This document shows, in pieces, positions 22,536 to 64,000 of a stretch of DNA of 64,000 nucleotides. Made by a program: the position numbers and the translations under genes. The notes under the pieces were generated by a model, which had not been told where the DNA came from, searched no databases, and saw only the letters and a program-made list of their open reading frames with translations. How positions within the stretch are numbered: position 1 is the first letter of the stretch; every line of letters starts with the position of its first letter. Source of the DNA: an uncultured Acidimicrobiia bacterium (lineage in GTDB: Bacteria; Actinomycetota; Acidimicrobiia; Acidimicrobiales; JACDCH01); NCBI GenBank assembly GCA_963721305.1, contig CAVRIR010000003.1, positions 600,884 through 664,883 of the forward strand. Reading direction: 5' to 3'.

Positions 22536-22992
22536 CAACGTTTGAGCAGGTCAGGCGCTTGTCGCGTGAGACAGCGAACGGCACATCACCATCGTCATCG
22601 TCTCGTGCCTTTCTCGTCGTGGGGAACCGCGACGGGCACTCCTGATGACAACAGTGCGTTTGCCTCTTACGAGCCACGCCGCGGACAGGACACTGGCGGC
22701 ACGGCTGTTCGTTTAACAGCCAGACCCGTGGCCGGCAGGCACTTCAAGAGCCGAACCGCCAGCACCCTCGACGCTACGAGCAACCCCGTCGCGCCAACCC
22801 GATTCTCAATCGGGCACTTCTGCGCTGTCGGTGGTGGTGTTCAGATGCGCGCCGGTCGGCTTGGAGGAGGTGCTTGTGTGACAGCTGACCGAGGTCTTGT
22901 CGCGACGAATTAGTTGTCGAGCGGCGCCGGTGGCGCGAGGTTTTGGCCAGTCGCCTCAGGGCGGGGACGGCTGGGGACTGGGGGCGTGTCCG

Positions 22993-25503
22993 ATGCTGGG
23001 ACGCTGGGTTGTTGTGCGTGGGCTGGCAGTTCGGGGCATTGGGGGGCGCCGGTCTCGGTTGGGGCGTGTTGGTTTGGTCGTGTTGGTTGGGGTCGCGTTG
23101 TTGGGGTTGTCGGGTTGTGTGGCTGATCCGCCGCCGCGGATCGGGTTGGCGGTTGCGGGGAACGGTGAGGCGGCGTTGTCGTGGCAGCCGCCGCTGGCGG
23201 CGCCGTTTCCGACTACGAGTTATCGGGTGACGCCGTGGGTCGGTCAGGTGGCACAGACACCGATGGTGGTGAGCTCGTCGGCCACGACTTCGACAGTGAC
23301 TGGTTTGAGCAATGGGCTCGCGTACACGTTCACGGTGACGGCGGTTGACAGTCGTGGTGACGAGAGCGCGTCGTCGGGCCAGTCGAACCGGGTCACGCCG
23401 AGTGCGGTGATCCCGGCGGTCACTTCGGTCGACGCCGGTGGAACGACGTCGTGTGCTCGGGTCGCCAACGGCACGGCGGAGTGCTGGGGCAACAATCCGG
23501 TCGGCGAGTTCGGTAACGGCACGACTGCCAACTCGAACATTCCAGTCATTGCCGCGATTGGCCATGTCTTCAGCACGGTCGAGACCGGCGGGCTGGCGTC
23601 TTGTGGGCTGACCCCCTCGAACACGGTGGAGTGCTGGGGTTACAACCTCGACGGCGAGCTGGGCAACGGCACCACTACCACCTCGACCACCCCTGTGCCC
23701 GTGACCGGGATCAGCAACGCGACCGCGATCGCGGCGGGCGGACGGCACGCGTGCGCGCTGCTGAGTGGCGGCACGGTGCAGTGTTGGGGCTACAACGCGT
23801 CCGGCCAGCTCGGCAACGGCACCACCACCAACTCTTCGGTGCCGGTGCCCGTAAGCGGGATCACCACCGCCACCGCCATCACGGCCGGGCACTTGCACAC
23901 CTGTGCCCGCCTCGCTGACGGCACGGTGCAGTGCTGGGGCAGCGCATTCGGCGATGGCTCCAACACCGACTCATCCACTCCCATCGCGGTCAGCGGGATC
24001 AGCACCGCCACCGCCATCACCGCCGGGTACGTGGATACGTGCGCCCTGCTCACCAATCACACCGTCGAGTGTTGGGGCGCCAACAACCAAGGCCAGCTCG
24101 GCGATGGCTCCACCACCGACTCGTTCAGTCCGGTCGCAGTTAACGGGATCACGTCCGCCACCGCGGTCGGGGCGGGCGACGTGCACACTTGCGCGGTCCT
24201 CACCGGCGGCACGGTGAAATGTTGGGGCTACAACGCGTTCGGCCAGCTCGGCAACAACACCACCACCAATTCGTCCACCCCCGTCACCGTGACCAACCTT
24301 CCCGCCGTCACCGCGGTCGCTGCAGGAGCCAACCACACCTGTGGCCTGCTCACCGGCGGCACCGTCGCCTGCTGGGGCGACAACGGCGTCGGCCAACTCG
24401 GCAACGGCACCACCACCGGCGCGCCCACCCCGGTCCCCGTCGCCTGGCCCGCTCCCGTTGCCATCACCGCCGGCACCGAGCACACCTGCGTCCTGCTCAC
24501 CGGAGGCACCATCGCCTGCTGGGGCCGTAACCAATTCGGGCAGCTCGGCAACGGCACCACCGTCGACTCGTCTACCCCTGTCGGGGTCATTGGGATCACC
24601 CAGGCTGTCGCCGTTGCCGCCGGCGGCGAGCACACCTGCGCCCTGCTCAGCGACAACATCGTCAAGTGCTGGGGCCGGAACAATTTCGGCGAGCTCGGCA
24701 ACAGCAGCTTGACCGACTCGTCGACCCCGGTCGCGGTTACCGGGATCAACAACGCCATCGGCATCGCTGCCGGCATTGGGCACACGTGCGCCGTGCTCAG
24801 CGGTTTCCACCTCAAGTGCTGGGGCAACAACTCCTTCGGGCAGCTCGGCAACGGCAGCACCGTCAATGCCGTCAGCCCTGCCGACGTGACCGGGATCTCC
24901 ACTGCCACCGCCATCACCGCCGCCAGCTCGCACACCTGCGCGATGCTTTTGGGCGGCACCGTCAAATGCTGGGGTGGCAACTTGCTCGGCCAGCTCGGCG
25001 ACAGCACCACCGCCGGCTCGACCACGCCGGTCGCCGTCACCGGGATCACTACCGCTGTCGGTGTCACCGCCAGCGGCTTCCACACCTGCGCCCTGCTCTT
25101 CGACAGCACCGTCGCCTGCTGGGGCAGCGGAGGCAGCAACGGCACCAACACCGACTCGTCCACCCCCGTGCCGGTCTCCGGGATCACCACCGCCGTCAGG
25201 ATCACCGCCGGCGACTCCCACACGTGCGCCCTGCTTACCAGCGGCACGATCGAATGCTGGGGTTTCAATTCCCTAGGCCAACTCGGCAACGGCACCACCA
25301 CCGACTCGATAACCCCGGTCGCCGTCACCGGGATCACGACCGGCATCACCGTCTACGCCAACGCCATCACCGCCGGCACTGAGTACACCTGCGCCCTCCT
25401 GACCGGCGGGACCATCGACTGTTGGGGCCTCAACACCCAGGGACAGCTCGGCAACGGGACCACCATCGACTCGCACACCCCTGTCGAGGTCGTCTGGCCC
25501 TAG
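22993..25503 (+). CDS. lipoprotein with one FN3 domain and 14 RCC1-type beta-propeller blades (two tandem 7-blade propellers)
   Basis: ATG 22993; signal plus lipobox LLGLSGC. FN3 pattern (LSWQPP...YRVTP...[19 protein letters not shown]). 14 occurrences of the CWG-x4-GQLGNG blade motif. Confidence 0.85.
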
Positions 25504-35281: not shown

Positions 35282-35414
35282 TCTGAGCGCAGGAAACGAC
35301 CAAGCCGCACCTTTCGGACAGGTCCGCGGATTCCAGCGTTGCGGGGGCCGGGTGGTTGTGGAAGGGTCACGCGGGAGTCGCGCGAGTATCGGCGGCTGGA
35401 AGCGGGGGTGGGCG

Positions 35415-36884
35415 ATGGGTCTGCATGGGCGATTCGGACTTGTCCGGACTCGACGGTTGCACGCTGCGGTCCGACGCCGCGCCCGGTGGAGGAGCGTGCT
35501 GATCTTGGCGCTCCCGGTGGCCGTGGCATCGACGACCCTGACGGCTTGCGTGGCTGATCCTCCTCCGAGAATGGTTGGCGCCGTCGCCCACGACCACAGC
35601 GCGGTCGTGACCTGGCTTCCGCCCGTGGCTTCGAACGCGGGGATCGCGGCGTACGTCGTTACCCCGTATGTCAACCAGGTTGCGCAGACTCCGACCCGGT
35701 TCAACTCGGCGGCCACGACTCAAACGGTCACTGGGCTCACCAACAGCACCACGTACACCTTCACGGTTCTTGGCATCGACGCGGTAGGGAATGACACCGC
35801 TTCCTCGGGCGAATCGAACGCGGTATCACCTCCCGGGGCCACCGCCATCAGCGCGGGCAACTATCACACGTGCGCGCGGCTTCCGGGCGGCGTGGTCAAC
35901 TGCTGGGGCTCGAACAGCGACGGCGAGCTCGGCAACGGCCTCATCACCGGCTCGAACACTCCGGTCGCGGTCACCGGGATGACCAACGCCACCGCCATAG
36001 CGTCCGGCGAAGATCACACGTGCGCCCGGCTTGTTGGAGGGACCGTCGACTGCTGGGGTGGAAACTTCACCGGGCAGCTGGGCGATGGCAACACCTTCAA
36101 CCAGCCCACACCAGTTGCGGTCACCGGGATCACCACCGCCACCACCATCGCGACGGGCTACTTGCACTCGTGCGCGCTGCTCGTCGGAGGCACCGTCGAC
36201 TGCTGGGGCTCAAACGGTGCCGGGCAGTTGGGTGACGGCACCTTCACCGATTCGTCCACGCCGGTTGCGGTCACCGGGATCACCAACGCCACCGCCATCG
36301 CCGGCGGATTCGAACACACGTGCGCGCTGCTCAGCAGCGGAGCCGTCAACTGTTGGGGTGACAACAGCTTCGGCGGCCTCGGCAACGGCACCACCACCAC
36401 GTCGTTCACCCCCGTCGCCGTCACCGGCATCACCACCGCCACCGCCATCGCCACCGGCGGCAACCACACCTGCGCAGTGCTCGCTGGAGGCACCGTCGAC
36501 TGCTGGGGCGGAAACTTCGAAGGCCAATTGGGTGACGGCACCACCACCGATTCGTTCACCCCCGTCGCCGTCACCGGTATCACCACCGCCACCGCCATCG
36601 CAGCCGGCAATAGCCAGACGTGCGCGCTGCTCAGCAGCGGAGCCGTCGACTGTTGGGGCTACAACGGCTCGGGACAGCTGGGCAACGGCACCACCACCAA
36701 CTCGTCCAGCCCGGTCGCCGTCACCGGGATCACCACCGCCACCGCCATCACCGGCAACTCGGATTTCGATTGCGCTCTCCTTACCGGCGGCGCAGTCCAA
36801 TGCTGGGGTCACAACAACGTCGGGCAGCTTGGTAACAACACCACAACCGACGCGCACACCCCGGTCGAAGTCCTCTGGTCCTAG
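35415..36884 (+). CDS. lipoprotein with one FN3 domain and 7 RCC1-type blades (paralog of 22993..25503)
   Basis: ATG 35415; lipobox TTLTAC followed by VADPPPR, as in the paralog. FN3 (VTWLPP...YVVTP...TVTGLTNSTTYTFTV). 7 CWG-x4-GQLG blades; ends HTPVEVLWS versus HTPVEVVWP in the paralog. Confidence 0.85.
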   Translation: MGLHGRFGLVRTRRLHAAVRRRARWRSVLILALPVAVASTTLTACVADPPPRMVGAVAHDHSAVVTWLPPVASNAGIAAYVVTPYVNQVAQTPTRFNSAATTQTVTGLTNSTTYTFTVLGIDAVGNDTASSGESNAVSPPGATAISAGNYHTCARLPGGVVNCWGSNSDGELGNGLITGSNTPVAVTGMTNATAIASGEDHTCARLVGGTVDCWGGNFTGQLGDGNTFNQPTPVAVTGITTATTIATGYLHSCALLVGGTVDCWGSNGAGQLGDGTFTDSSTPVAVTGITNATAIAGGFEHTCALLSSGAVNCWGDNSFGGLGNGTTTTSFTPVAVTGITTATAIATGGNHTCAVLAGGTVDCWGGNFEGQLGDGTTTDSFTPVAVTGITTATAIAAGNSQTCALLSSGAVDCWGYNGSGQLGNGTTTNSSSPVAVTGITTATAITGNSDFDCALLTGGAVQCWGHNNVGQLGNNTTTDAHTPVEVLWS

Positions 36885-37901: not shown

Positions 37902-40900
37902 CTACGCCGTGGTCCGCAGCAGCTGCCTGATGACCCCCGTGGCGTCGTTCGCCCCCGCGGTGAACTCGTCCGCCGCAGTCTCGTTGCCCACCTCGTCACG
38001 GGCTCGGTCGAGAAGCACATCCACATCGGCTCGCGCGCCGACTCCGAACGCCAAACCGAGAGCAGCGCCCGGGGCTTTCCGCAGTTCGCTCGCCGCTCCC
38101 AGCAGTCGCGCGGCTCCCTGGCCGTCGTGCTCGAGCAATCCGGTCGCGGCGAGACTCTCGAGCGCGAACGCCAGGGCGCGCGGCAACGCGGCCTCGTTCG
38201 CGATCTGAAGCGCGTCGAGTTGACGCGATCGAGCCCGCCCGGCGTCGCCATCGATGCCTGCGGCCCAGCCGAGGATGGTGGCGCAATACGTTGCCGCCTC
38301 GGGGTGGTCGATCTCGCGTGCGGCATCGAGCCCTTCCTGCGCATAGGGGGCGGCGCGGTCGGCCCTTCCAGCGCGCCACTCCGTGATGGCGAGCCCGGTC
38401 AGCGACTCGGAGATACCGCGGACGAATCCGAACTCGCGCGCCCACGCGAGAGGGAGCGCCAGTACGGACCGGGCCCGATCGGCATCGCCCTTCTCGGACA
38501 GTGCCTCGCCGAGCTCGCCGAGCAACAGATTCAAGAATCCACTCAGCCCGAGGTTCTGTGCGATTGTGCAGGCGCGTTCCAGAGCATCGATTGCCCCCGC
38601 GTGGTCGCCTCGAACCGCTGCAAGCCGCGCCGCATACCGCAATGCGAGCGATTCGTGTGCCGACATCGCGTTCGAGGTAAGTAGGTCGAGGCTCGCCTGG
38701 AAGGCATCCTCGGCATCGGTGTAGCGATCTTCGAGGAACGCGAGTCGCCCCGTGGCGAACGCGCGCATCGCGCGGGTCAACGGATCGTCGCCCGCGGCGA
38801 TGAGCCGGTCTTCGGCGTCCGCGACGAGCTCAACTGCCCGCCCAACATCTCCGAGCGTCGAGAACGTGACGGAGATCGCCAGCTCGACGCCGGCGAGTTC
38901 CTCTTCCACCTCGTCCGCCTTGCAGTACAGCGAAACCGCTTCGCGCGACAGTTGCGAGATCTCTTCGAGTGAGCGGCAACAGTCGGGGCTCTGTCGTCGG
39001 AGCTGGCGTGCGCCACCGGCCTCGCCCCATTTCACGAATCCGGGCGCGTCGGCAAAGACTGTCCACGCGAGGACACGGGCCAGCGCGATGTCGCTGACCG
39101 GCCCCGCGCACGACCGGGCAACAGTGAACCAACGCGAGGCTTCGAGTCCGCGTCCGGTAATCCACCAATACCATCCGAGGCCGCCCGCGATGCGGTGTGC
39201 GGTTTCGGCGTCGCCTTCGTCGACGGCGACGTCGAGTGCAGCCCGCAGGTTCGTCAGATTCGAGGCGACAGCGCGCAGCCATCCGCGTTGGCGATACCCG
39301 CGCAGCGCCGCGATGCTGCGCACAGCGAAGTCCGCGTAGTAACGGACATGGGCGGCATAGATCGATTCGGTGTCGCCCAAAGCTTCGAGTCGATCTCGGC
39401 CGTAGTCGACGAGCGTTTGCAGCATGTGACATCGCCCGTATCCGTCGAACTCGTCGGTTTCGACAACGACCAGTGACTTGTCGACGAGCCGCGCGATCAA
39501 CTCGGACACGTCGTCACCTGAGATCTCTTCATCTGCGCACACGACCCGGGCGGCGGCGAGACTGCAGCTTCCGCGAAAGACCGAGAGTCGAATGAACACG
39601 AGCCGCTCGTCGTCGAAGAGCAGGTCGTAGCTCCAGTCGACGACGGCGCGAAGCGTCTGCTGGCGCGGAAGGGCGGTTCGCGCGCCGCGGGTGAGTACGC
39701 GGAATCGATCCTCCAGCCCGGCCGCCAGCTCAACGATCGGCATGGCGCGCATGCGGGCCGCCGCCAGTTCGATCGCGAGTGGCAATCCATCGAGCCGGCC
39801 GCAGATGTCTTCCAGCGTGTGCCTCATCTGCGGCGACTCGTCGCTCACGTCTGATACGGGGTCCACCGCGCGGCCGCGCTCGACGAACAGAGCGATCGCG
39901 TCGTCGAGCGCCAACGGCGGCACCGTCCACAGCACTTCGCCTGGGATCGCCATTCCTTCGCGACTCGTCGCCAGGATCCGAAGTCCCGGACACGACTCGA
40001 GCAGGTCCTGTGCCAGGACTGCAGCCGTAGCCACGAGGTGCTCACAGTTGTCGAGAACTATGAGCACGGCCTTGCCGCTCAGGTACTCCACCAGGCGCGG
40101 CACGTCGGTGTTGTCAGGGCCGCCTCGCGGCAAGTCGATCGCGTTCATGATCGCCGGCACGATCTCGTTTCCATCGCTGACGGCGGCGAGCTCGACCATC
40201 CAGACCTCGGCACCGCCGGAAGCGACGCGCTCGCGCGCGGCTTCCTGCGCAAGCCGAGACTTGCCGACACCGCCCGGTCCGACGAGCGTGACGAGGCGAC
40301 TCTCCTCCAGCACAGGCTTCAGAGCCGAAATCTCCGGGTGTCGGCCGACCAGCGTTGTCAAGGGCGTGCGCAGATTCGTCGTCGGACGACCCGTCGATGC
40401 AGGACCGCGCCCGAGAACGACATGGTCCTGCTGCAGGATGGCCGTCTCGAGCGCCCGTAGCTCGGCCGATGGCTCGAGACCGAGCTCTTCGCCGAGTACG
40501 TCGCGGGCGGCTTGATAAGCGCGCAACGCCTCGGCCTGGCGACCACACCGCGACAATGCCAACATCAGTTGCGCTCGGAAGTGCTCTCGCAACGGATGCG
40601 CGCCAACGAGCTGTTCCAGCTCGCCGATCAATGACGTATCGCGACCAAGGGCGAGGTCGGCGTCGATGCGCGCCTCGATGGCGACGAGGCGCGCTTCGGT
40701 GAGTCGCACGATCTCCTGCTGCGCGAAGTCCTCGTATGTCACGTCGGCGACTGGGTCGCCTCGCCACAGCGCGAGCGCCTCGTCGAGGAAGGCACGCGCG
40801 CGCACCGGATCGCCGGCGTGCATCGCGTCGTAGCCGCGCGCGGCGAGCGCGTCGAAACAGAAGATGTCGACCGATGCGCGGTCGATGGAAAGGGCGTACC

Positions 40901-41156
40901 CGCTCCCGCGCCTCGCGATCACGTCTGGCGCGTCGAGGACGCTTCGTAGCCGCGATACCTGTCGCTGGAGGGCGTTGGCCGACTGTTGCGGTGGGTCCGC
41001 ACCCCAGATCGCGTCGATCAATGCATCATCGGTGACAACCTCGCCGCATCGAAGCGCGAGGGCCGTGAGCAAGATCGCAACGCGCCGGCCCGCGACGGCG
41101 ATCCGCTCGCCACCGGCATCGACTACTTCGAGAGATCCCAGCAGCCCGATCTCCAC
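37902..41156 (-). CDS. AfsR/SARP-family regulator: OmpR-type wHTH + BTAD + NB-ARC/STAND ATPase + TPR-like C-terminus
   Basis: GTG 41156. LLGSLEV...ALLTALALR..VVTDDALIDAIWG; BTAD (ALALWRGDP...FAQQEIVRLTEARL...AYQAARDVLGEELGLEPS); Walker A GPGGVGKS; about 600 aa of helical repeats. Confidence 0.85.
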   Translation of the reverse strand: MEIGLLGSLEVVDAGGERIAVAGRRVAILLTALALRCGEVVTDDALIDAIWGADPPQQSANALQRQVSRLRSVLDAPDVIARRGSGYALSIDRASVDIFCFDALAARGYDAMHAGDPVRARAFLDEALALWRGDPVADVTYEDFAQQEIVRLTEARLVAIEARIDADLALGRDTSLIGELEQLVGAHPLREHFRAQLMLALSRCGRQAEALRAYQAARDVLGEELGLEPSAELRALETAILQQDHVVLGRGPASTGRPTTNLRTPLTTLVGRHPEISALKPVLEESRLVTLVGPGGVGKSRLAQEAARERVASGGAEVWMVELAAVSDGNEIVPAIMNAIDLPRGGPDNTDVPRLVEYLSGKAVLIVLDNCEHLVATAAVLAQDLLESCPGLRILATSREGMAIPGEVLWTVPPLALDDAIALFVERGRAVDPVSDVSDESPQMRHTLEDICGRLDGLPLAIELAAARMRAMPIVELAAGLEDRFRVLTRGARTALPRQQTLRAVVDWSYDLLFDDERLVFIRLSVFRGSCSLAAARVVCADEEISGDDVSELIARLVDKSLVVVETDEFDGYGRCHMLQTLVDYGRDRLEALGDTESIYAAHVRYYADFAVRSIAALRGYRQRGWLRAVASNLTNLRAALDVAVDEGDAETAHRIAGGLGWYWWITGRGLEASRWFTVARSCAGPVSDIALARVLAWTVFADAPGFVKWGEAGGARQLRRQSPDCCRSLEEISQLSREAVSLYCKADEVEEELAGVELAISVTFSTLGDVGRAVELVADAEDRLIAAGDDPLTRAMRAFATGRLAFLEDRYTDAEDAFQASLDLLTSNAMSAHESLALRYAARLAAVRGDHAGAIDALERACTIAQNLGLSGFLNLLLGELGEALSEKGDADRARSVLALPLAWAREFGFVRGISESLTGLAITEWRAGRADRAAPYAQEGLDAAREIDHPEAATYCATILGWAAGIDGDAGRARSRQLDALQIANEAALPRALAFALESLAATGLLEHDGQGAARLLGAASELRKAPGAALGLAFGVGARADVDVLLDRARDEVGNETAADEFTAGANDATGVIRQLLRTTA

Positions 41157-41206
41157 GCCCCGAGGATACGCACTGGTCCCTTCGCGAGGGTGAAGCGCCG
41201 CGTTTG

Positions 41207-42133
41207 TCAGACGATCTTCGGTATGACCTCGGCCGCGAGCCTTTCCATCTGATCGGCGATGTCGAACAGCGGGTTCACGAGGATCAACTCGGCGCCGGCG
41301 TCCGCGACCTGCTGCAGCCCGGCCACGCAATCGCTGGCTGTACCCGTCACCGCTACGGGCAGAAGCGTTCGACCGAGCTCACCGTAGAAATCGGTCAAGG
41401 CGTCCGACATTCGTTGGCGCGCTTGTCGCGGATCGTCATCGACGGCGACGTAGACGCGTTTGGCGATCCGAAACATTTCCGCGTCCAGCCCCGATTCAAC
41501 GAGCATCGACCGCACCGTGCGGACCTGCTCGGTGAAGCTCGCGGTGGTCGACGAGCCCGCGCCGAAGAATCCGTCGCCGAGTTGAATGGCGCGACGCAGT
41601 GCGGCGGGATGGCTGCCGCCGAACCACAGCGGTGGGTAGGGCTTTTGGAACGGCTTGGGCTCCATGGTCGCGGCGTCCAACTGCCAGAACCGTCCCGCCA
41701 CCGCAGCTTCGGGTTCGGTCCAGAGCGCCTTCATCACGTCGATTCCTTCGACGAACCGCGTCACGAGATGGTCGTCGGGATCGACACCGAATGCCGAGAA
41801 CATGCGATTCCGTCCGCCGATCCCGACTCCGACCTCGAGTCGTCCGCGGCTGAGTTGGTCCAGCGTGGCGATGCTCTTGGCGAGATGAACCGGGCTGTGC
41901 AGTGGTGTCACGAACACGGAGCATCCCAGCCGAATCTCATCGGTCAGCGCGGCCGCATACGCCATGATCTCGAGTGGGCTGGGATGAGGAATGCGGCCGA
42001 GCACCTGTTCGGTGATCCAGGCGCTCTCGAAACCGAGCTGTTCGGCACGTCTCAGGTAATCGCGGAACTCCTTCGGACGGAAGGAACCGTCGGGGAGATG
42101 CTGCGGAAGGGGAATCGCGTACCGGGTCATCAC
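41207..42133 (-). CDS. LLM-class (luciferase-like) probable F420-dependent oxidoreductase
   Basis: 308 aa; GFESAWITEQ...RLEVGVGIGG...LWFGGS pattern. Confidence 0.8.
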   Translation of the reverse strand: MMTRYAIPLPQHLPDGSFRPKEFRDYLRRAEQLGFESAWITEQVLGRIPHPSPLEIMAYAAALTDEIRLGCSVFVTPLHSPVHLAKSIATLDQLSRGRLEVGVGIGGRNRMFSAFGVDPDDHLVTRFVEGIDVMKALWTEPEAAVAGRFWQLDAATMEPKPFQKPYPPLWFGGSHPAALRRAIQLGDGFFGAGSSTTASFTEQVRTVRSMLVESGLDAEMFRIAKRVYVAVDDDPRQARQRMSDALTDFYGELGRTLLPVAVTGTASDCVAGLQQVADAGAELILVNPLFDIADQMERLAAEVIPKIV

Positions 42134-59224: not shown

Positions 59225-59298
59225 GGGCGATTAGCTCAGTTGGCTAGAGCACCTGCATGACGCGCAGGGGGTCGGGGGTTCGAATCCCTCATCGCCCA
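59225..59298 (+). tRNA. tRNA-Val (anticodon GAC)
   Basis: GGGCGAT acceptor pairs with ATCGCCC. Anticodon arm cctgc-atgacgc-gcagg, T arm ggggg-ttcgaat-ccctc, discriminator A. Confidence 0.85.
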
Positions 59299-59300
59299 CG
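59287..59300 (+). repeat. left copy of 14-bp target-site duplication CCTCATCGCCCACG (last 12 nt of tRNA-Val plus 2)
   Basis: Identical 14-mer at 60626..60639, directly abutting both IS ends. Confidence 0.8.
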
Positions 59301-60625
59301 CGTGTGATGTCGCGAGACATCGGAAACACCTTGAACCCTTATCTCGGTGGCTGGCGGGGTTTGGGTCCTGGTGGCCGTCCGAGGGGTTGGTAGTTCTTGG
59401 CGGGGTCGATGGTGAGTTTGCGGATGAGCTCGCCGGTGGTGGCGTGGGCGACGCGGACGTCGAGGTTGTGGACGAGAACGATCACGCGGGTGCCGCGGTG
59501 TTCGGCGCCGAGGCCGATGTGGTGGAGGCGCCCGTTGACGCGCAGAGTGATCTTTGCGCTGTGGTCGACGGTGTCGTGGCGGACGCGGTCGTGGCTGTCG
59601 TCGCGGTCGCCTGGGGATGCTTTGGGTCGCCGGTGGTAGGCGTCGGCTGGTGTGCATCGCTGCGGTAGGGATCGGTGCGGTCGTTGGTGGTTGTAGTGCT
59701 CGGCGAACGCGTCGAGCAGTGCTTGTAGCTCGGCGATGGTCACGGGCTGGTCGGGTTGCGCGTCGAGCCATCGCTTGAGGGTCTGGTGGAAGCGTTCGAC
59801 TTTCCCGCAGGTTGTCGGATGGTTGGGCCGGGAGTTCTTCTGCGTGATGCGGAGGCGGCGAAGCTCGGCCTCGAAGCCGTTGCGGCCGCCTTTGCCACCG
59901 GCGAAGCGGGTGGTGAACACCATGCCGTTGTCGGTCAGCGTCGACGCGGGCACGCCGTGGTGGGCGATAGCGGCGCGGAACTCGTTGAGCACGATCGGTC
60001 CGGTGACGCGGTGGTGCGCGGTGAGGCGCAGGGCGTAGCGGGCGTGATCGTCGAGCCAGCACAGGACCTCGACGTCGACGCCGCCAGCGAGGCGGTAGTG
60101 GGTGAAGTCGGCCTGCCAAGTCTCGTTGGGCTGCTCGGCTTGGAAGCGCACATAGCTCGAGCGCGGACGCTTGTGCGGCTGGGGGGTGACGAGTCCCGCA
60201 CGGTGCAGATAGCGCCCGATCGTGGCGGCCGACAGCGACACGCCATGGTGGTGCGCGAGATGCCAGCGGATCGTCTCCGCTCCGGCGTCGTCGCCGGCTT
60301 CGACGAGCCGACGCCGCAGCTCGACGATCACAGCGACAACATCGAGCGGCGTCGCCCTCGGCGAGTTGTTCGCCCGCCGTGACTTCGGCTCGAACGCGGC
60401 GTCGCCTTCGTCGCGGTAGCGGGCCACCAGCCGCGACACCCAGCCCGGCGACACGCCATAGTCACGACCGACCTCCCGAACCCCACGGCCCTCGAGGACC
60501 ACTGCAGTGATGACAAGCCGGGCACGTGACATGCCCGAGCGTCAAGACCTGCATCGCCGCCACGGTGGACCTCAGGTGTTTCCCATGACGCGCGACAGGT
60601 GTTTCCTATGTCCTGACATCACACA
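59301..60625 (-). mobile_element. IS481-family insertion sequence (1325 bp) with imperfect terminal inverted repeats
   Basis: Ends are cGTGTGATGTC...GACATCACACa. The subterminal GGAAACACCT motif occurs once at the left end and twice (inverted) at the right end. Single rve-type transposase ORF, flanked by a 14-bp direct repeat. Confidence 0.85.
59339..60532 (-). CDS. IS481 family transposase (HTH + DDE/rve integrase core)
   Basis: 397 aa; PNETWQADFTHY...WLDDHARY...TDNGMVFT...NHPTTCGKVERFHQTLK...YNHQRPHRSL. Confidence 0.9.
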   Translation of the reverse strand: MSRARLVITAVVLEGRGVREVGRDYGVSPGWVSRLVARYRDEGDAAFEPKSRRANNSPRATPLDVVAVIVELRRRLVEAGDDAGAETIRWHLAHHHGVSLSAATIGRYLHRAGLVTPQPHKRPRSSYVRFQAEQPNETWQADFTHYRLAGGVDVEVLCWLDDHARYALRLTAHHRVTGPIVLNEFRAAIAHHGVPASTLTDNGMVFTTRFAGGKGGRNGFEAELRRLRITQKNSRPNHPTTCGKVERFHQTLKRWLDAQPDQPVTIAELQALLDAFAEHYNHQRPHRSLPQRCTPADAYHRRPKASPGDRDDSHDRVRHDTVDHSAKITLRVNGRLHHIGLGAEHRGTRVIVLVHNLDVRVAHATTGELIRKLTIDPAKNYQPLGRPPGPKPRQPPR

Positions 60626-60639
60626 CCTCATCGCCCACG
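60626..60639 (+). repeat. right copy of 14-bp target-site duplication
   Basis: CCTCATCGCCCACG immediately after the right IS end. Confidence 0.8.
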
Positions 60640-61118
60640 GCCCGTTGTCAGAGTTACAACGTTTGCCCTGGTCAGAGGCCATTTCGTCGTGTCCGGTCGC
60701 TCGGACCAATGTTCGTCGCGTCTTTCAAACCCCGGTGATCCGGCGCACGTTCAGTCGAGACCCAGCCGTCCGATCGGCAGCGGTATGTCGGTGGGACACG
60801 GCAGCAGCATTGACGCGCTTCGCGTCGTGCCGGACCCGCCCCAGCCGCCTAGATCGCTGGCTGTGTGCGGCTCAGCATCCGCGACCAACGTCGCCGCGAA
60901 AATCGCCGAGCACCGCTCCACCGAGCGTCGTGGTTCAGTCAGTCAGTTGGTCGACGCGACGGAGACGCAGTCCGCTGTCGCGGATGGCTCGACTCTTCGT
61001 GACGGCAGCGACTGAACCGGCGGCGCGTCGCCGACGTTGACCACGTCGGGCTCGGCTCCGTGTGGTTGCGCCGGGTTGGCGGTCGTCGGCCGGATTCGCC
61101 CGAGTTCGGAGAGCACGT

Positions 61119-64000
61119 CTAGTCGAGATCTGCGATCCACAGCAACGCGATGGACGACGGCCACTCCGGCTGACGGTCGTCGACGAGCACGCTGATGAGG
61201 ATCCGCTCGACCCATGCCTGCTTCACCAACCGCTCCACCGCCGGCTCGCGCCCATGGAAAGTCCGCTCGTGGCCTGACTCGAGCAATAGCGTGAAGCCCT
61301 CGAAGTCGCCGAAGCGGTCGTAGAACACCGCGACCACTTTCCCGATGAACTCAGCGCCGAAGCGAGAAACGTGTCGTCCGCCCTGATCATCCCCGTCGTG
61401 CTCGTGGCCGGGATGCCTCGGATGCCCTGGTACGTCCCCGGAGGGCGACGGCCCAATCACGTTCGGGTTGCCGTCGAAGCCGAGGACCCGACCGGCGATG
61501 AGTTGCTCGTACTTGCGCAGCACCGGAAGCCAGCGGCTCGTGACCTCCGTGACGCTGATCCGCCAACGGATCCATGCCAGGAGCCGCTCCTCGGGGTAGA
61601 GCAGGTTGTCCTTCATGGTGATCGGGATCCGAACCTGGAACGCGCCACGGAGCTGCCGCCAGGCGAGTGCGTAGCCAGGAACGCCGGCCTCCCGCTGGGC
61701 GAGGTTCGGCGAGCTGTCCTTGGTATGCCTGAACAGCTGGGCTGGGGAGAGCTGCTGGACCCCGATGTCGTAGATGTCGCCACGTCGTATGCCCGGAGGA
61801 AGGTCCAGCGACAACAGCCCCGCGTAATGGCCGGCACCGGGAGGCACCGGGATGAAGCTGATACCCGCGGCCGGGCACTGGATCGTGTGACTGTCGAACG
61901 CGACCAGTTGGTGGCTGCGGTACATCCGGTCGGCCAGCACGATGACCTCGGCGGCGTCCACCTCCGGCAGGTAGAACGAGGCGATCGAATCCTTGGGCGT
62001 GTTGCCCCACGTCACCAGCAGCTCGTCCAGGCCGAGCGACGCGGGGTCGCTGGCGCGGATCTCAAACGGATGGGGCATGACGCGAGATGGCTCGGCGCCG
62101 GGGTTCGGGCCGTCGATCCAGGCGATGTTGCGCTGAGCGAGCTTGTCCGACGTCGTGCCGCTCGCGCCGTTGGGGATAGGCGTATCGTCGTACCGGATCT
62201 CGGCGATCAGGCACTGGTGCGGCGCGGCGGTGATCGCTGAGTTGATGGACGACGTGCCGGTCCACGGCCCATCCCAATTCGACTGACCGCCCGATGGGGG
62301 CGTGGGCACGAGGAACTTCTGACCGGGCTGATTGATGTCCAGCCAGCACCCGAAGTAGGAGTCGACCTCGACGTTAGGTGAGGTCACGATCGATCGCGCG
62401 TTGGGCGAGTCGATCTGGGTGTTCATGTCGGCCGGGCTGGTCAGGTTCACGCGCCTGCTGGCGAAGCACGGTACCGAGCTGTATTCGAGCGCACCGGACT
62501 GATTGGTCTGCACGCCGAGGAGGGCGATCTTGTGCCCGGCGGTGCCGTTCGAGCCCCACCGGTAGGACCCCTGTCCCTGGCCGACCTCGGTGAAGGTCGA
62601 AGAGGTGGTCGCCGCTGGGAAGAGTCGGAAGAACACGCGTACCGGTTCGACCGTGACGACGGAGCTGGCCAGGATCCGCACACGTGCGACCGCGAAGTTG
62701 AAGGTCGGGTCGTGGGTCGTGGAGTTGTCAGCCAAGAACTCCAGTGCGGACAGCTCTTCGCTTTGCTGCAGTGTCGTCTCGAATGTGTCGCCATTCGTGA
62801 TTAGCGAAGGGTTGTTCAACCGATCCAGAACGGAGGTGATGTATCCGGGCGCGTCTGCTGCGGTGGAAGGGTTGGGTACACCGAACATCGTGTGAGCCTG
62901 AGTCGGCGTCACCTTGAAGAACCGCAGGTCGTAGCTCAGCCAGGTCGGGAACGCCGTCGGGTGGTCCGGATCCGTATCGGTGAAATACGGGTCCTCGCCC
63001 TTCGTCAGCTCGATCGGTGCCGACGTGGTCACCGTGATCGGCCCGACGGTAAAGGTGGCGTGCAGCGTGAGGATCGCAACCTCGTGTACCTGGAGCGCGT
63101 TGAACGCCGCGCTGCCGGCGAACGACACGGTGTAGGGGTAGAGGAACTGCTGCATCTCCGAGACCAACGAGGGATCTGTCGCCTCGATTGGTGACGGTCC
63201 GAACGTGGACACCGCAGGCAGGTTGGCTCGGATCGTCGACCGCTGGCTCGACGTCAGGGAGCTGTTGAGGGCGTCGTCGAGCGTGACCGTGATGTTTGGT
63301 GCGGGTGACGGCGGCTGGTTCAACGCGGCTGCGGTCGCGAAGCCGAGCGCTTCGTTGGTGAAACCCTGCACCGACAGCCAGAAGGCCTTCGGCCAGCTGG
63401 TGTGGACGATGACCTCGTCCTGGCCGAACGTCGCCTTGTTGATGACGAAGCCGATCTCGGGGATCGCCAGCGGTGCCCCCCAGATCTGCTCGACGGCCGT
63501 CGTACTGCCCCGCCGATCGGTCCAGCACCCGAAGAAACGGCCGTGCGCGACGCTCAACCCGATGTAGTCGCCGAACTCCTGCGCGTTGTCCTGGGGCGTG
63601 ACGGCCTCATCGGTGCCCAACGTCGTGACTTGGATTGCCGGCGACCACGTCCCTCCGAAGTCGGTCGAGTACTGCATCCAGATGTCGGCTTGCACACGGT
63701 TGGCGTCGTTGACGGTGTCGTAATAGATGATCATCATCCGGCCGCTGTCGTCGTCGACGGCAAGCCGCGGGAAGAACTGATCGTTCTTGCCGGCCTGGTC
63801 GTTGATCTTCACCGCCGCCGACCAGTTCTGGCCGCCGTCGGTCGAGCGCGCGAACCAAACTCGCGTCTTGCACGCCGACGTGGTTGTGGTTCCCGGAGCG
63901 TTGGCGGGAGAGTTGCACCCGGTGCCGCCGGCCAGGTCGTGCCAGCACGCGTATACGTCGTCGCGCCCGCTGCCGCTGTAGGCCCCGCCGCTGAGGTTGA
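61119..64000 (-). CDS. large protein: N-terminal BNR/sialidase-like propeller (partial, 5' end outside window) fused to about 750 aa with no recognisable domain
   Basis: The frame stays open to position 64000 (hand translation upstream of the track's GTG 63812 gives ...VWFARSTDGGQNWSAAVKIN...). Asp-box motifs STDGGQNW and STDFGGTW. The rest is unrecognised, ending in a His/Gly/Pro linker and a small YDRFGDFEGF domain. Confidence 0.7.
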   Translation of the reverse strand, partial: NLSGGAYSGSGRDDVYACWHDLAGGTGCNSPANAPGTTTTSACKTRVWFARSTDGGQNWSAAVKINDQAGKNDQFFPRLAVDDDSGRMMIIYYDTVNDANRVQADIWMQYSTDFGGTWSPAIQVTTLGTDEAVTPQDNAQEFGDYIGLSVAHGRFFGCWTDRRGSTTAVEQIWGAPLAIPEIGFVINKATFGQDEVIVHTSWPKAFWLSVQGFTNEALGFATAAALNQPPSPAPNITVTLDDALNSSLTSSQRSTIRANLPAVSTFGPSPIEATDPSLVSEMQQFLYPYTVSFAGSAAFNALQVHEVAILTLHATFTVGPITVTTSAPIELTKGEDPYFTDTDPDHPTAFPTWLSYDLRFFKVTPTQAHTMFGVPNPSTAADAPGYITSVLDRLNNPSLITNGDTFETTLQQSEELSALEFLADNSTTHDPTFNFAVARVRILASSVVTVEPVRVFFRLFPAATTSSTFTEVGQGQGSYRWGSNGTAGHKIALLGVQTNQSGALEYSSVPCFASRRVNLTSPADMNTQIDSPNARSIVTSPNVEVDSYFGCWLDINQPGQKFLVPTPPSGGQSNWDGPWTGTSSINSAITAAPHQCLIAEIRYDDTPIPNGASGTTSDKLAQRNIAWIDGPNPGAEPSRVMPHPFEIRASDPASLGLDELLVTWGNTPKDSIASFYLPEVDAAEVIVLADRMYRSHQLVAFDSHTIQCPAAGISFIPVPPGAGHYAGLLSLDLPPGIRRGDIYDIGVQQLSPAQLFRHTKDSSPNLAQREAGVPGYALAWRQLRGAFQVRIPITMKDNLLYPEERLLAWIRWRISVTEVTSRWLPVLRKYEQLIAGRVLGFDGNPNVIGPSPSGDVPGHPRHPGHEHDGDDQGGRHVSRFGAEFIGKVVAVFYDRFGDFEGFTLLLESGHERTFHGREPAVERLVKQAWVERILISVLVDDRQPEWPSSIALLWIADLD

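Follow-up and report, generated by a model that had tools for sequence, protein, structure and literature searches.

The gene considered here runs off the end of a 64,000-nucleotide stretch of DNA from an uncultured Acidimicrobiia bacterium (the window; GenBank contig CAVRIR010000003.1, positions 600,884 to 664,883), and its product of 1209 aa consists of an N-terminal β-propeller head followed by a conserved block of ~780 aa that we call the chassis. It is well supported that this protein pairs a swappable head with a constant chassis and does so without a signal peptide; equally well supported is the standing of the chassis as an unannotated family. We propose, with a probability of about 0.4, that the chassis is a Sec-independent carrier and targeting module for exo-enzymes.

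The gene, its chassis and the heads it carries

On the minus strand of the window, the frame from a TAG at 61119-61121 to base 63998 holds 959 sense codons without a stop, and the gene exits at the window edge; the first GTG of this frame gives a 61119-63812 portion. A protein from a public collection, P0001, is 1209 aa long and is identical to all 959 visible residues (100% identity, 100% coverage), so 250 N-terminal residues fall beyond the edge, where the start codon and a partner gene of ~100 aa are expected. An earlier note, made by a model from the letters of this stretch, had correctly read a 5'-truncated minus-strand gene of more than 950 aa, and every motif that it quoted was recovered in frame; the blocks that it called conserved-looking are where most invariant columns fall in alignments of 60-68 homologues. 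It had also held a signal peptide to be unassessable, which the full-length N-terminus (MAANVSLSQTTT...) now settles: none is present, as judged by a simple hydropathy heuristic and inspection. With 491 homologues at E<=1e-3 in one protein search and 366 genomic loci, the gene is far beyond a chance open reading frame (ORF). No terminator-like site was found downstream of its stop.

The residues after the head form a conserved block of 782 aa, for which an AlphaFold2 (AF2) model built from 68 sequences has a predicted local distance difference test score (pLDDT) of 84.9 and a predicted template modelling score (pTM) of 0.81. The parts of the gene within the window are as follows, with module residues numbered along the chassis; Ig stands for immunoglobulin and HMM for hidden Markov model.

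61119..64000, minus strand: the 3' 80% of the gene (959 of 1209 codons plus stop), from the open frame and the identical P0001
63468..63998, minus strand: last two propeller blades, visible here (full-length residues 251-427), from sub-threshold Pfam BNR/BNR_2 matches and Asp boxes
63822-63845, minus strand: motif STDGGQNW, found in frame
63645-63668, minus strand: motif STDFGGTW, found in frame
63555-63575, minus strand: motif FGDYIGL, found in frame
62988..63467, minus strand: D1, a β-sandwich with short helices (module 1-160), from AF2 (pLDDT 84-97) and a domain HMM in 81 sources
62034..62939, minus strand: D2, a large elaborated arrestin/Ig-like β-sandwich (module 177-478), from alignments and AF2
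62673-62711, minus strand: motif DPTFNFAVARVRI, found in frame
62619-62642, minus strand: motif VRVFFRLF, found in frame
62172-62219, minus strand: motif HQCLIAEIRYDDTPIP, found in frame
62115-62141, minus strand: motif LAQRNIAWI, found in frame
61617..62033, minus strand: D3, a β-sandwich ending in a long β-hairpin with a disordered tip (module 479-617), from AF2 (pLDDT 86-98) and HMM
61416..61616, minus strand: Trp/Arg-rich helical hairpin EERLLAW..W....RW.PVL.RY and then a linear motif, from AF2 and near-invariant columns
61377-61427, minus strand: the His/Gly/Pro linker quoted in the earlier note, found in frame
61362..61415, minus strand: disordered linker rich in His/Pro/Gly/Asp, whose length and sequence differ among homologues, with pLDDT <50 at module 685-702
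61134..61361, minus strand: terminal OB-like barrel, b1-b2-b3-helix-b4-b5 (module 705-775), from AF2, Foldseek and a profile search
61293-61349, minus strand: motif FIGKVVAVFYDRFGDFEGF, found in frame

D1 opens with a conserved junction strand (...FVINKATFGQDEV). D2, which reached a pLDDT of 85.1 when modelled separately, is where the alignments place most of the family's invariant polar residues (D180, R182, R277, R281, R339, Q351, D353, N356, D377, N379, H417, C419, D427, Q445, R446 and N447), as well as a Cys pair, C374/C419, that is conserved at 98-100%. The helices of the hairpin (module 619-639 and 647-663) lead into a near-invariant linear motif, GF(G/D)G(D/N)P..I.PSP.G.VPG (module 664-684, window about 61416-61481), which is modelled as unstructured and could be a processing or docking site. 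A reading of the hairpin as like that of the type VII secretion system (T7SS) was rejected on inspection: WxG and YxxxD/E motifs are both missing, and diderms also carry the family. Behind the linker, which is disordered in the AF2 model, the compact terminal module that the earlier note had singled out is indeed present: its elements (E705-716, E722-729, E734-738, H742-754, E757-763 and E766-775; pLDDT 88-94) follow the strand order of an OB fold, with five strands arranged b1-b2-b3-helix-b4-b5, and it bears an invariant G-K...D.FGDF.GF motif. The OB domains of phage DNA ligases match ~100 residues here with a Foldseek probability of 0.98, at a target-normalised template modelling (TM) score, TMt, of only 0.21.

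No match to the chassis was found in Pfam, NCBIfam, PADLOC or PHROGs, nor among all PDB sequences, whether searched with phmmer from a single sequence or with two family profiles. Compared as a whole with the PDB by Foldseek, the chassis retrieved only tandem Ig-like arrays at TM ~0.1 (MSCRAMM N2-N3 regions, integrin legs, and the macroglobulin domains of alpha-2-macroglobulin and complement); the viral structure library BFVD likewise gave generic Ig-array matches only, at TM ~0.1, besides the ligase OB match. D2 alone drew arrestin-N (TXNIP), fibronectin type III (FnIII)-like domains of GH3 enzymes and hemocyanin domain 3, all weakly (TM<=0.37), and neither D2 nor the chassis found a catalytic fold in the PDB; resemblance of the chassis to shell, S-layer or encapsulin proteins was likewise absent from the Foldseek results. 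The closest likenesses are those of the whole chassis to the N2-N3 regions of the Ig-like adhesins Bbp, SdrE and SdrG (E=4.5e-6, probability 0.95) and of D2 to the arrestin-fold N domain of TXNIP (TXNIP/ARRDC group; E=6e-4, probability 0.97); however, TM scores of 0.1-0.37 (for the whole chassis, a query-normalised TM-score, TMq, of 0.10) and identities of 5-12% denote resemblance in fold class rather than membership, and the chassis protein differs further from MSCRAMM adhesins in having no signal peptide, LPXTG or latch motif. The view that some 750 aa after the propeller resist assignment has thus held, now for ~780 aa that are unmatched in profile libraries and solved structures; the structure searches of the post-propeller region that the earlier note had asked for yielded fold-class matches only, and no known glycoside hydrolase with carbohydrate-binding modules (CBMs) emerged.

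When one genome per species was scanned, 366 chassis loci were located in about 12 phyla, nearly all in metagenome-assembled genomes (MAGs) from soil. Carriers belong to the Acidobacteriota, Actinomycetota, Alpha- and Betaproteobacteria, Chloroflexota, Dormibacterota, Bacteroidota, Verrucomicrobiota, Planctomycetota, Armatimonadota, Binatota and Saccharimonadales, with chassis identities of 36-60% across this range; the closest chassis relatives come from Actinomycetota MAGs, and the best match to the present protein among species-representative genomes is 58% identical. Cultured carriers, i.e., Ralstonia solanacearum, R. syzygii, Paraburkholderia sprentiae and the Bacillus cereus group, hold the gene on plasmids or megaplasmids. 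A tblastn search of 50,697 phage records found no homologue of the module.

Of 81 sources, 78-81 contain the five chassis domains side by side by HMM, and in none does a domain occur by itself; a profile of the OB tail retrieved 817 representatives among 1.84 billion proteins, all of them within the chassis family. The earlier note had raised the prospect of the YDRFGDFEGF module as a standalone protein, which these matches contradict: the short ones are all family fragments that still hold upstream linker or hairpin motifs. The tail can nonetheless follow a BNR head directly, with D1-D3 missing; P0341 and four more clusters of ~520 aa are built this way. In the mini architecture encoded at L086:4691-6557 (P0341, 518 aa), the partner gene is followed by BNR, a short acidic linker and OB, without the helical hairpin. 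Since it can be fused straight to a head, the OB tail is an autonomous functional end; in Bacillus members a Cys-rich helical tail takes its place. No description of the chassis was found in profile libraries or the searchable literature, and the LodA fusions reported in PMC4417212 are of a different kind, being N-terminal fusions.

Upstream of the chassis stand at least 14 unrelated head classes. Those identified are the BNR propeller, Peptidase_M14, LodA_N with LodA_C, a Pro-kumamolisin prodomain with S8/S53, Aspzincin_M35, Kelch/galactose-oxidase-like and Vps10-type BNR heads; several other classes have no Pfam match. Most of the recognisable heads are families that normally act outside the cell; their enzyme motifs are intact (HxxE in M14, GTSA in S53), and the S53 heads retain their zymogen prodomain. 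None of the 14 classes, including those of cultured Ralstonia and Bacillus, shows a leader-like N-terminus by the same heuristic and inspection. Chassis clusters at least 65% identical carry mixed heads (BNR, M14 and an unknown class; BNR and LodA; BNR and a class termed unknown-5), and M14, LodA and S53 heads are each spread over several chassis clades, from which it follows that heads were swapped more than once. At some loci two or three paralogues lie together, each with a head of its own, as in one Acidobacteriaceae MAG (L003:8413-21231), where a tandem array of three chassis bears a BNR head (with partner), a LodA-like head and a third head; no LodB-like flavoprotein gene is apparent beside the LodA-headed copy.

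The propeller head and its partner protein

The head (full-length residues 1 to about 427) is a BNR/Asp-box β-propeller. Its five Asp boxes (S-x-D-x-G-x-x-W/F), at positions 48, 101, 205, 302 and 361, have blade-like spacing, and two of them lie inside the window, where the visible blades also contain the Cys pair C278/C293 and the motifs GDY and WTDRR. Pfam ranks BNR, BNR_2 and further propeller models highest, all under or barely at their cut-offs: against curated thresholds of 31.4 bits for BNR_2 and 27 bits for BNR, the full-length protein scores 26.4 and 23.7 bits, and the visible part 20.7 and 24.3 bits, respectively.

With GH33 sialidases and other BNR propellers the head thus shares its five Asp boxes, and Pfam BNR/BNR_2 and PDB sialidases are its top matches. 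It departs from them in that its scores lie at or under thresholds and in the state of the expected Arg motif. In a single-sequence search, the PDB entry that matches best belongs to a sialidase (E=0.008, across 83 residues of Asp-box sequence), and a profile of the head family run against all PDB sequences finds no solved structure, sialidases included, at E<=0.01. A conservation map of 83 heads contains many invariant charged residues and no F/YRIP (RIP) motif; one RIP-like Arg candidate, in an N-terminal D-I-R, is ~80% conserved in the family and is Ala here. Further Arg, Tyr and Glu residues are conserved (R97, R153, R239, R351, R412/413, Y342, Y395 and E381); it would take a structural superposition to compare them with the Arg triad and the Tyr/Glu nucleophile pair of sialidases. 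The pair C278/C293, conserved at 98-99%, flanks a 14-residue loop inside the window. Of the earlier label of a BNR/sialidase-like propeller, the Asp-box propeller therefore stands, while 'sialidase' is reduced to a fold-level term, in keeping with the BNR_2 score of the full-length protein, the isolated PDB match, the silent profile and the Ala at the candidate Arg; sialidase activity of the head is unproven.

Directly upstream of homologous BNR-chassis genes, on the same strand and at a gap of 2-43 nt, lies a gene for a ~100-aa protein that has no Pfam or PDB match. This partner gene is present at 16 of 17 BNR-chassis loci and at none of 63 others; at the present locus, its product is expected to carry the motifs WPSLEEQL...GSALEKLI...PLWLRVYWRKNHPE...GGYP. 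A search with the head alone returned 961 relatives, among the best 120 of which 64 combine a signal peptide, the partner domain and BNR in about 560 aa, 16 are partner-BNR proteins without a leader by the hydropathy heuristic, 18 are BNR alone and 5 are BNR-OB; beside BNR-alone and BNR-OB genes, the partner is again a separate gene upstream. Partner and propeller thus look like a gene-fission/fusion pair whose state goes along with having or lacking a signal peptide. A large family of proteins of ~560 aa annotated as 'sialidase family proteins' (L085:4001-5686; P0359, P0368 and P0452) has the signal peptide-partner-BNR layout.

Mean identities of 55% for the partner, 58% for the head and 52% for the chassis indicate similar rates of evolution, and partner identity tracks that of the head (r=0.70) more closely than that of the chassis (r=0.49). 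Because the partner tracks the head in identity and is fused to it in relatives, it appears to be an obligatory domain or subunit of the propeller, and the need for such a domain of ~100 aa, for which sialidases offer no known counterpart, further separates the head from GH33. In the Sec-secreted relatives the partner would be the head's own N-terminal domain, and here it would come from a separate, translationally coupled upstream gene; it is probably a subunit, prodomain or chaperone of the propeller. The role of an immunity protein was ruled out, as the partner changes no faster than the head and, in relatives, forms one domain of a fusion protein.

Genomic surroundings

Among 80 loci surveyed by crude ORF calling and clustering, no conserved neighbours were found except the BNR-class partner gene, nor were class-specific small genes found beside other head classes; neighbour clusters 13, 14, 19, 20 and 49 were discarded as synteny between close relatives only. 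The 137 nearest neighbours were screened with Pfam and PADLOC: TonB-receptor domains, multicopper oxidases and sigma factors lead the list with at most 5 proteins each, and only about 3-4 of the 137 match defence models. PADLOC gave no match for four family members themselves. The Bacillus plasmid copies are the only ones that reside in a conflict-gene region. On the plasmids of B. cereus 2-6A (L081:7378-11025) and B. wiedmannii EPS29 (L084:7291-11025), a galactose-oxidase-like head sits on the chassis and a P-loop NTPase of identical type and 885 aa follows the chassis gene; one plasmid has SIR2 and type I-C CRISPR-Cas genes nearby, the other LanC and a T7SS EndoU toxin.

In the window, the features next to the gene are these:

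59225-59299: tRNA-Val(GAC)
about 59301-60625: IS481-family insertion sequence, inserted exactly at the 3' end of tRNA-Val(GAC)
59339-60532, minus strand: IS481-type transposase (rve, rve_3, HTH_32)

The terminal inverted repeats of the element read (C/T)GTGTGATGTC...GGAAACACCT, with a second partial copy at its right end (60573-60587 vs 60596-60610). A perfect 14-bp direct repeat, CCTCATCGCCCACG, flanks it at 59287-59300 and 60626-60639; its left copy coincides with the 3' end of tRNA-Val, so that the duplication regenerates the tRNA end. We considered this repeat as an island att site and rejected it, since it abuts the inverted repeats and is the target-site duplication of the insertion. The earlier note had placed the gene just beyond a tRNA-Val/IS481 junction, as is the case, and had taken this position as typical of horizontally acquired DNA; the element, however, has its own 14-bp target duplication, and the GC content at third codon positions of the gene (0.86) is like that of its neighbours (0.75-0.90). 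That the family as a whole has spread horizontally is plain from how scattered its carriers are among phyla; for the present locus, a recent acquisition is not supported.

Two ORFs between the element and the stop of the gene, 60507-61040 (plus strand) and 60943-61215 (minus strand), have no family match, and both are probably spurious high-GC ORFs, as the first overlaps the right end of the element. The window as a whole has an actinobacterial look: it is 67% GC and encodes PutA, together with an AfsR/SARP-type regulator (Trans_reg_C, BTAD, NB-ARC, TPR; 37902-41330, minus strand) typical of Actinomycetota. Two paralogous proteins with fn3 and RCC1-repeat propellers are encoded at 22897-25503 and 35352-36884 (both plus strand); ARAGORN calls an 89-nt tRNA-Pro(CGG) at 35401-35489, inside the second of these ORFs, and one of the two calls is probably wrong.

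What the chassis might do

As a carrier, the chassis would be non-catalytic and would serve its exo-enzyme head as a transport and targeting scaffold. The head would leave the producing cell Sec-independently, by dedicated export, vesicles or lysis, whereupon the chassis would hold it on a target surface or in an assembly, with the tethered OB barrel as the binding or oligomerising end. Action outside the cytoplasm is suggested by the Sec-secreted relatives of the head, the zymogen prodomains that have been kept and the conserved Cys pairs C278/C293 and C374/C419 (98-100%), which are probably disulfides; the chassis-less relatives of the propeller mostly carry signal peptides, so the propeller unit is normally extracytoplasmic. 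Such action without a signal peptide would require exit by a Sec-independent route. With no conserved neighbours, the protein together with its partner is self-sufficient.

Several points weigh against this proposal. No secretion-system, holin or lysis genes are linked to the chassis in the 80 loci and their 137 nearest neighbours, the chassis has no hydrophobic or pore-like segment, and since both monoderms and diderms carry the family, a single dedicated export route is hard to imagine. Export of the chassis is a prediction, and its description as a putative binding scaffold follows from fold class, the structural matches all being weak (TM<=0.38). The Cys residues could, together with H417, D377 and N379, instead form a metal site, and the strong polar conservation of D2 could signal an unrecognised enzyme. 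The frequencies of the heads, moreover, come from searches biased to this query.

Other explanations account for parts of the same evidence. Unlikely, in our estimate, though not to be neglected, is a self-assembling display scaffold, in which chassis units would oligomerise (e.g., by way of the hairpin and OB barrel) and so build a particle, a lattice or a surface layer on which the enzyme head is displayed, with no export function of its own implied. A chassis that is highly conserved yet has no conserved partner gene, an OB barrel on a flexible tether and interchangeable heads would all suit such a scaffold, and OB folds often form rings; nevertheless, known shell, S-layer and encapsulin proteins bear no resemblance to it, the OB tail is absent from Bacillus members, and the access of extracytoplasmic-type heads to their substrates would go unexplained. 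A quite improbable alternative keeps the protein inside the cell as a conflict or defence device, where the chassis would sense an invader and unleash the head (a protease or an H2O2-producing oxidase) as a toxic effector. Its main support comes from the Bacillus plasmid genes, which adjoin SIR2, the P-loop NTPase, type I-C CRISPR-Cas and T7SS toxins, and the missing signal peptide and the combination of head swapping with tandem paralogues, typical of conflict systems, agree with it. Against this, the protein has no PADLOC match and contains neither NTPase nor nuclease, TonB receptors, multicopper oxidases and sigma factors outweigh the few defence-type neighbours, phage homologues were not found in the phage records searched, and the heads are exo-enzyme families with prodomains whose closest relatives bear signal peptides.

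There is likewise a small chance that the chassis, and D2 in particular, is itself an unrecognised enzyme or a metal- or ligand-binding catalytic unit, for which the heads would be accessory recognition or processing domains. The ~17 invariant polar residues of D2, including an H-x-C motif, C374, D377 and N379, are unusually many for a spacer Ig domain, but the fold class is a β-sandwich without an enzyme match, no profile of any enzyme family matches, and the heads, whose motifs are intact, are complete enzymes in their own right. Very improbable, and largely refuted, is an ordinary secreted glycosidase with Ig/CBM-like spacers and a mis-called N-terminus: the propeller, the name 'sialidase family protein' that the PGAP annotation pipeline gives to homologues and the likeness of the β-sandwiches to FnIII-like domains of GH3 enzymes would favour it, whereas the alignment of the N-terminus with 83 homologues begins at residue 1, the closely spaced end of the partner gene (2-43 nt upstream) leaves no space for a leader, the chassis also carries proteases and oxidases, and no CBM or GH match was found.

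The carrier logic that we favour would resemble that of AB-type toxins and of cargo with a common sorting or anchoring domain. Large clostridial toxins and botulinum neurotoxins are AB-type or large modular exotoxins without a signal peptide, and AB5 toxins have OB-fold B subunits. Shared with these are an N-terminal enzymatic part, a C-terminal non-catalytic binding or delivery part, the absence of a signal peptide, an OB-fold element as the possible binding end and, in cultured carriers, a plasmid or accessory location; by contrast, the chassis has no sequence or fold match to toxin delivery domains and no translocation helices, and its heads, being digestive or oxidative enzymes, differ from classical intracellular toxins. 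Polymorphic toxin systems have an N-terminal trafficking domain, a variable C-terminal toxin and a cognate immunity gene immediately downstream. The chassis family likewise joins a constant region to swapped enzymatic domains, occurs as tandem paralogues and, in the BNR class, has a small head-specific neighbour. Its polarity is reversed, however, the variable domain being N-terminal; Rhs/YD, filamentous haemagglutinin, LXG, PAAR or similar trafficking domains are absent; there is no conserved downstream gene, the small partner being upstream, slow-evolving (55% mean identity vs 58% for the head) and fused in relatives; and other head classes have no cognate small gene.

Cargo with sorting domains (type IX secretion system (T9SS) C-terminal domains, type I secretion system (T1SS) C-terminal signals, dockerin-bearing cellulosomal enzymes) also groups unrelated enzymes behind one common C-terminal module, and the terminal ~80-aa domain of the present family can be attached directly to a head (the BNR-OB proteins). 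The chassis, though, has ~780 aa as opposed to 60-100 aa, occurs in 1-3 copies per locus and is not linked to secretion or scaffoldin genes; it is also found in taxa that have neither T9SS nor T1SS-type outer-membrane export (Actinomycetota, Chloroflexota, Bacillota and Saccharimonadales). Sec- or Tat-secreted enzymes differ in their hydrophobic leader, possessed by 64 of the best 120 chassis-less head relatives and absent, by the hydropathy heuristic and inspection, from all 14 head classes and from cultured members of the chassis family. Phage structural and tail proteins are set apart by the lack of a phage-genome homologue or a PHROGs chassis match, and by generic Ig arrays only in BFVD; known anti-phage defence systems, by the lack of a PADLOC model match for four family members and by a conflict-gene setting that is confined to the Bacillus plasmid copies. 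A constant module with swapped enzymatic domains is a pattern known from other systems, but the combination of this module, its polarity, the absence of a signal peptide and the absence of accessory genes fits none of these.

The BNR propeller family, as a two-part unit with an obligatory ~100-aa partner, bears on the role of widespread 'sialidase family proteins'. If the chassis is a carrier, this would explain how signal-peptide-less enzymes of secreted type meet their substrates, among them the long-puzzling LodA-like oxidases and the prodomain-bearing sedolisins, in abundant and mostly uncultured soil phyla (Acidobacteriota, Actinomycetota, Chloroflexota, Verrucomicrobiota and Dormibacterota); it would also bring into view a new family of about 800 clusters, at present annotated as 'hypothetical' or mislabelled as 'sialidase' or 'S53 peptidase'. 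A bolder idea, which we hold to be possible but doubtful, is that chassis and tethered OB barrel together make up an unrecognised, self-contained device for Sec-independent export or delivery, or for self-assembling display, common to monoderm and diderm soil bacteria of ~12 phyla; this would define a new class of modular effector carrier, into which exo-enzymes or toxins (propellers, S53, M14 and M35 peptidases, LodA and copper-radical-type oxidases) are plugged. Cultured carriers such as Ralstonia solanacearum, Paraburkholderia sprentiae and the Bacillus cereus group make the question directly testable.

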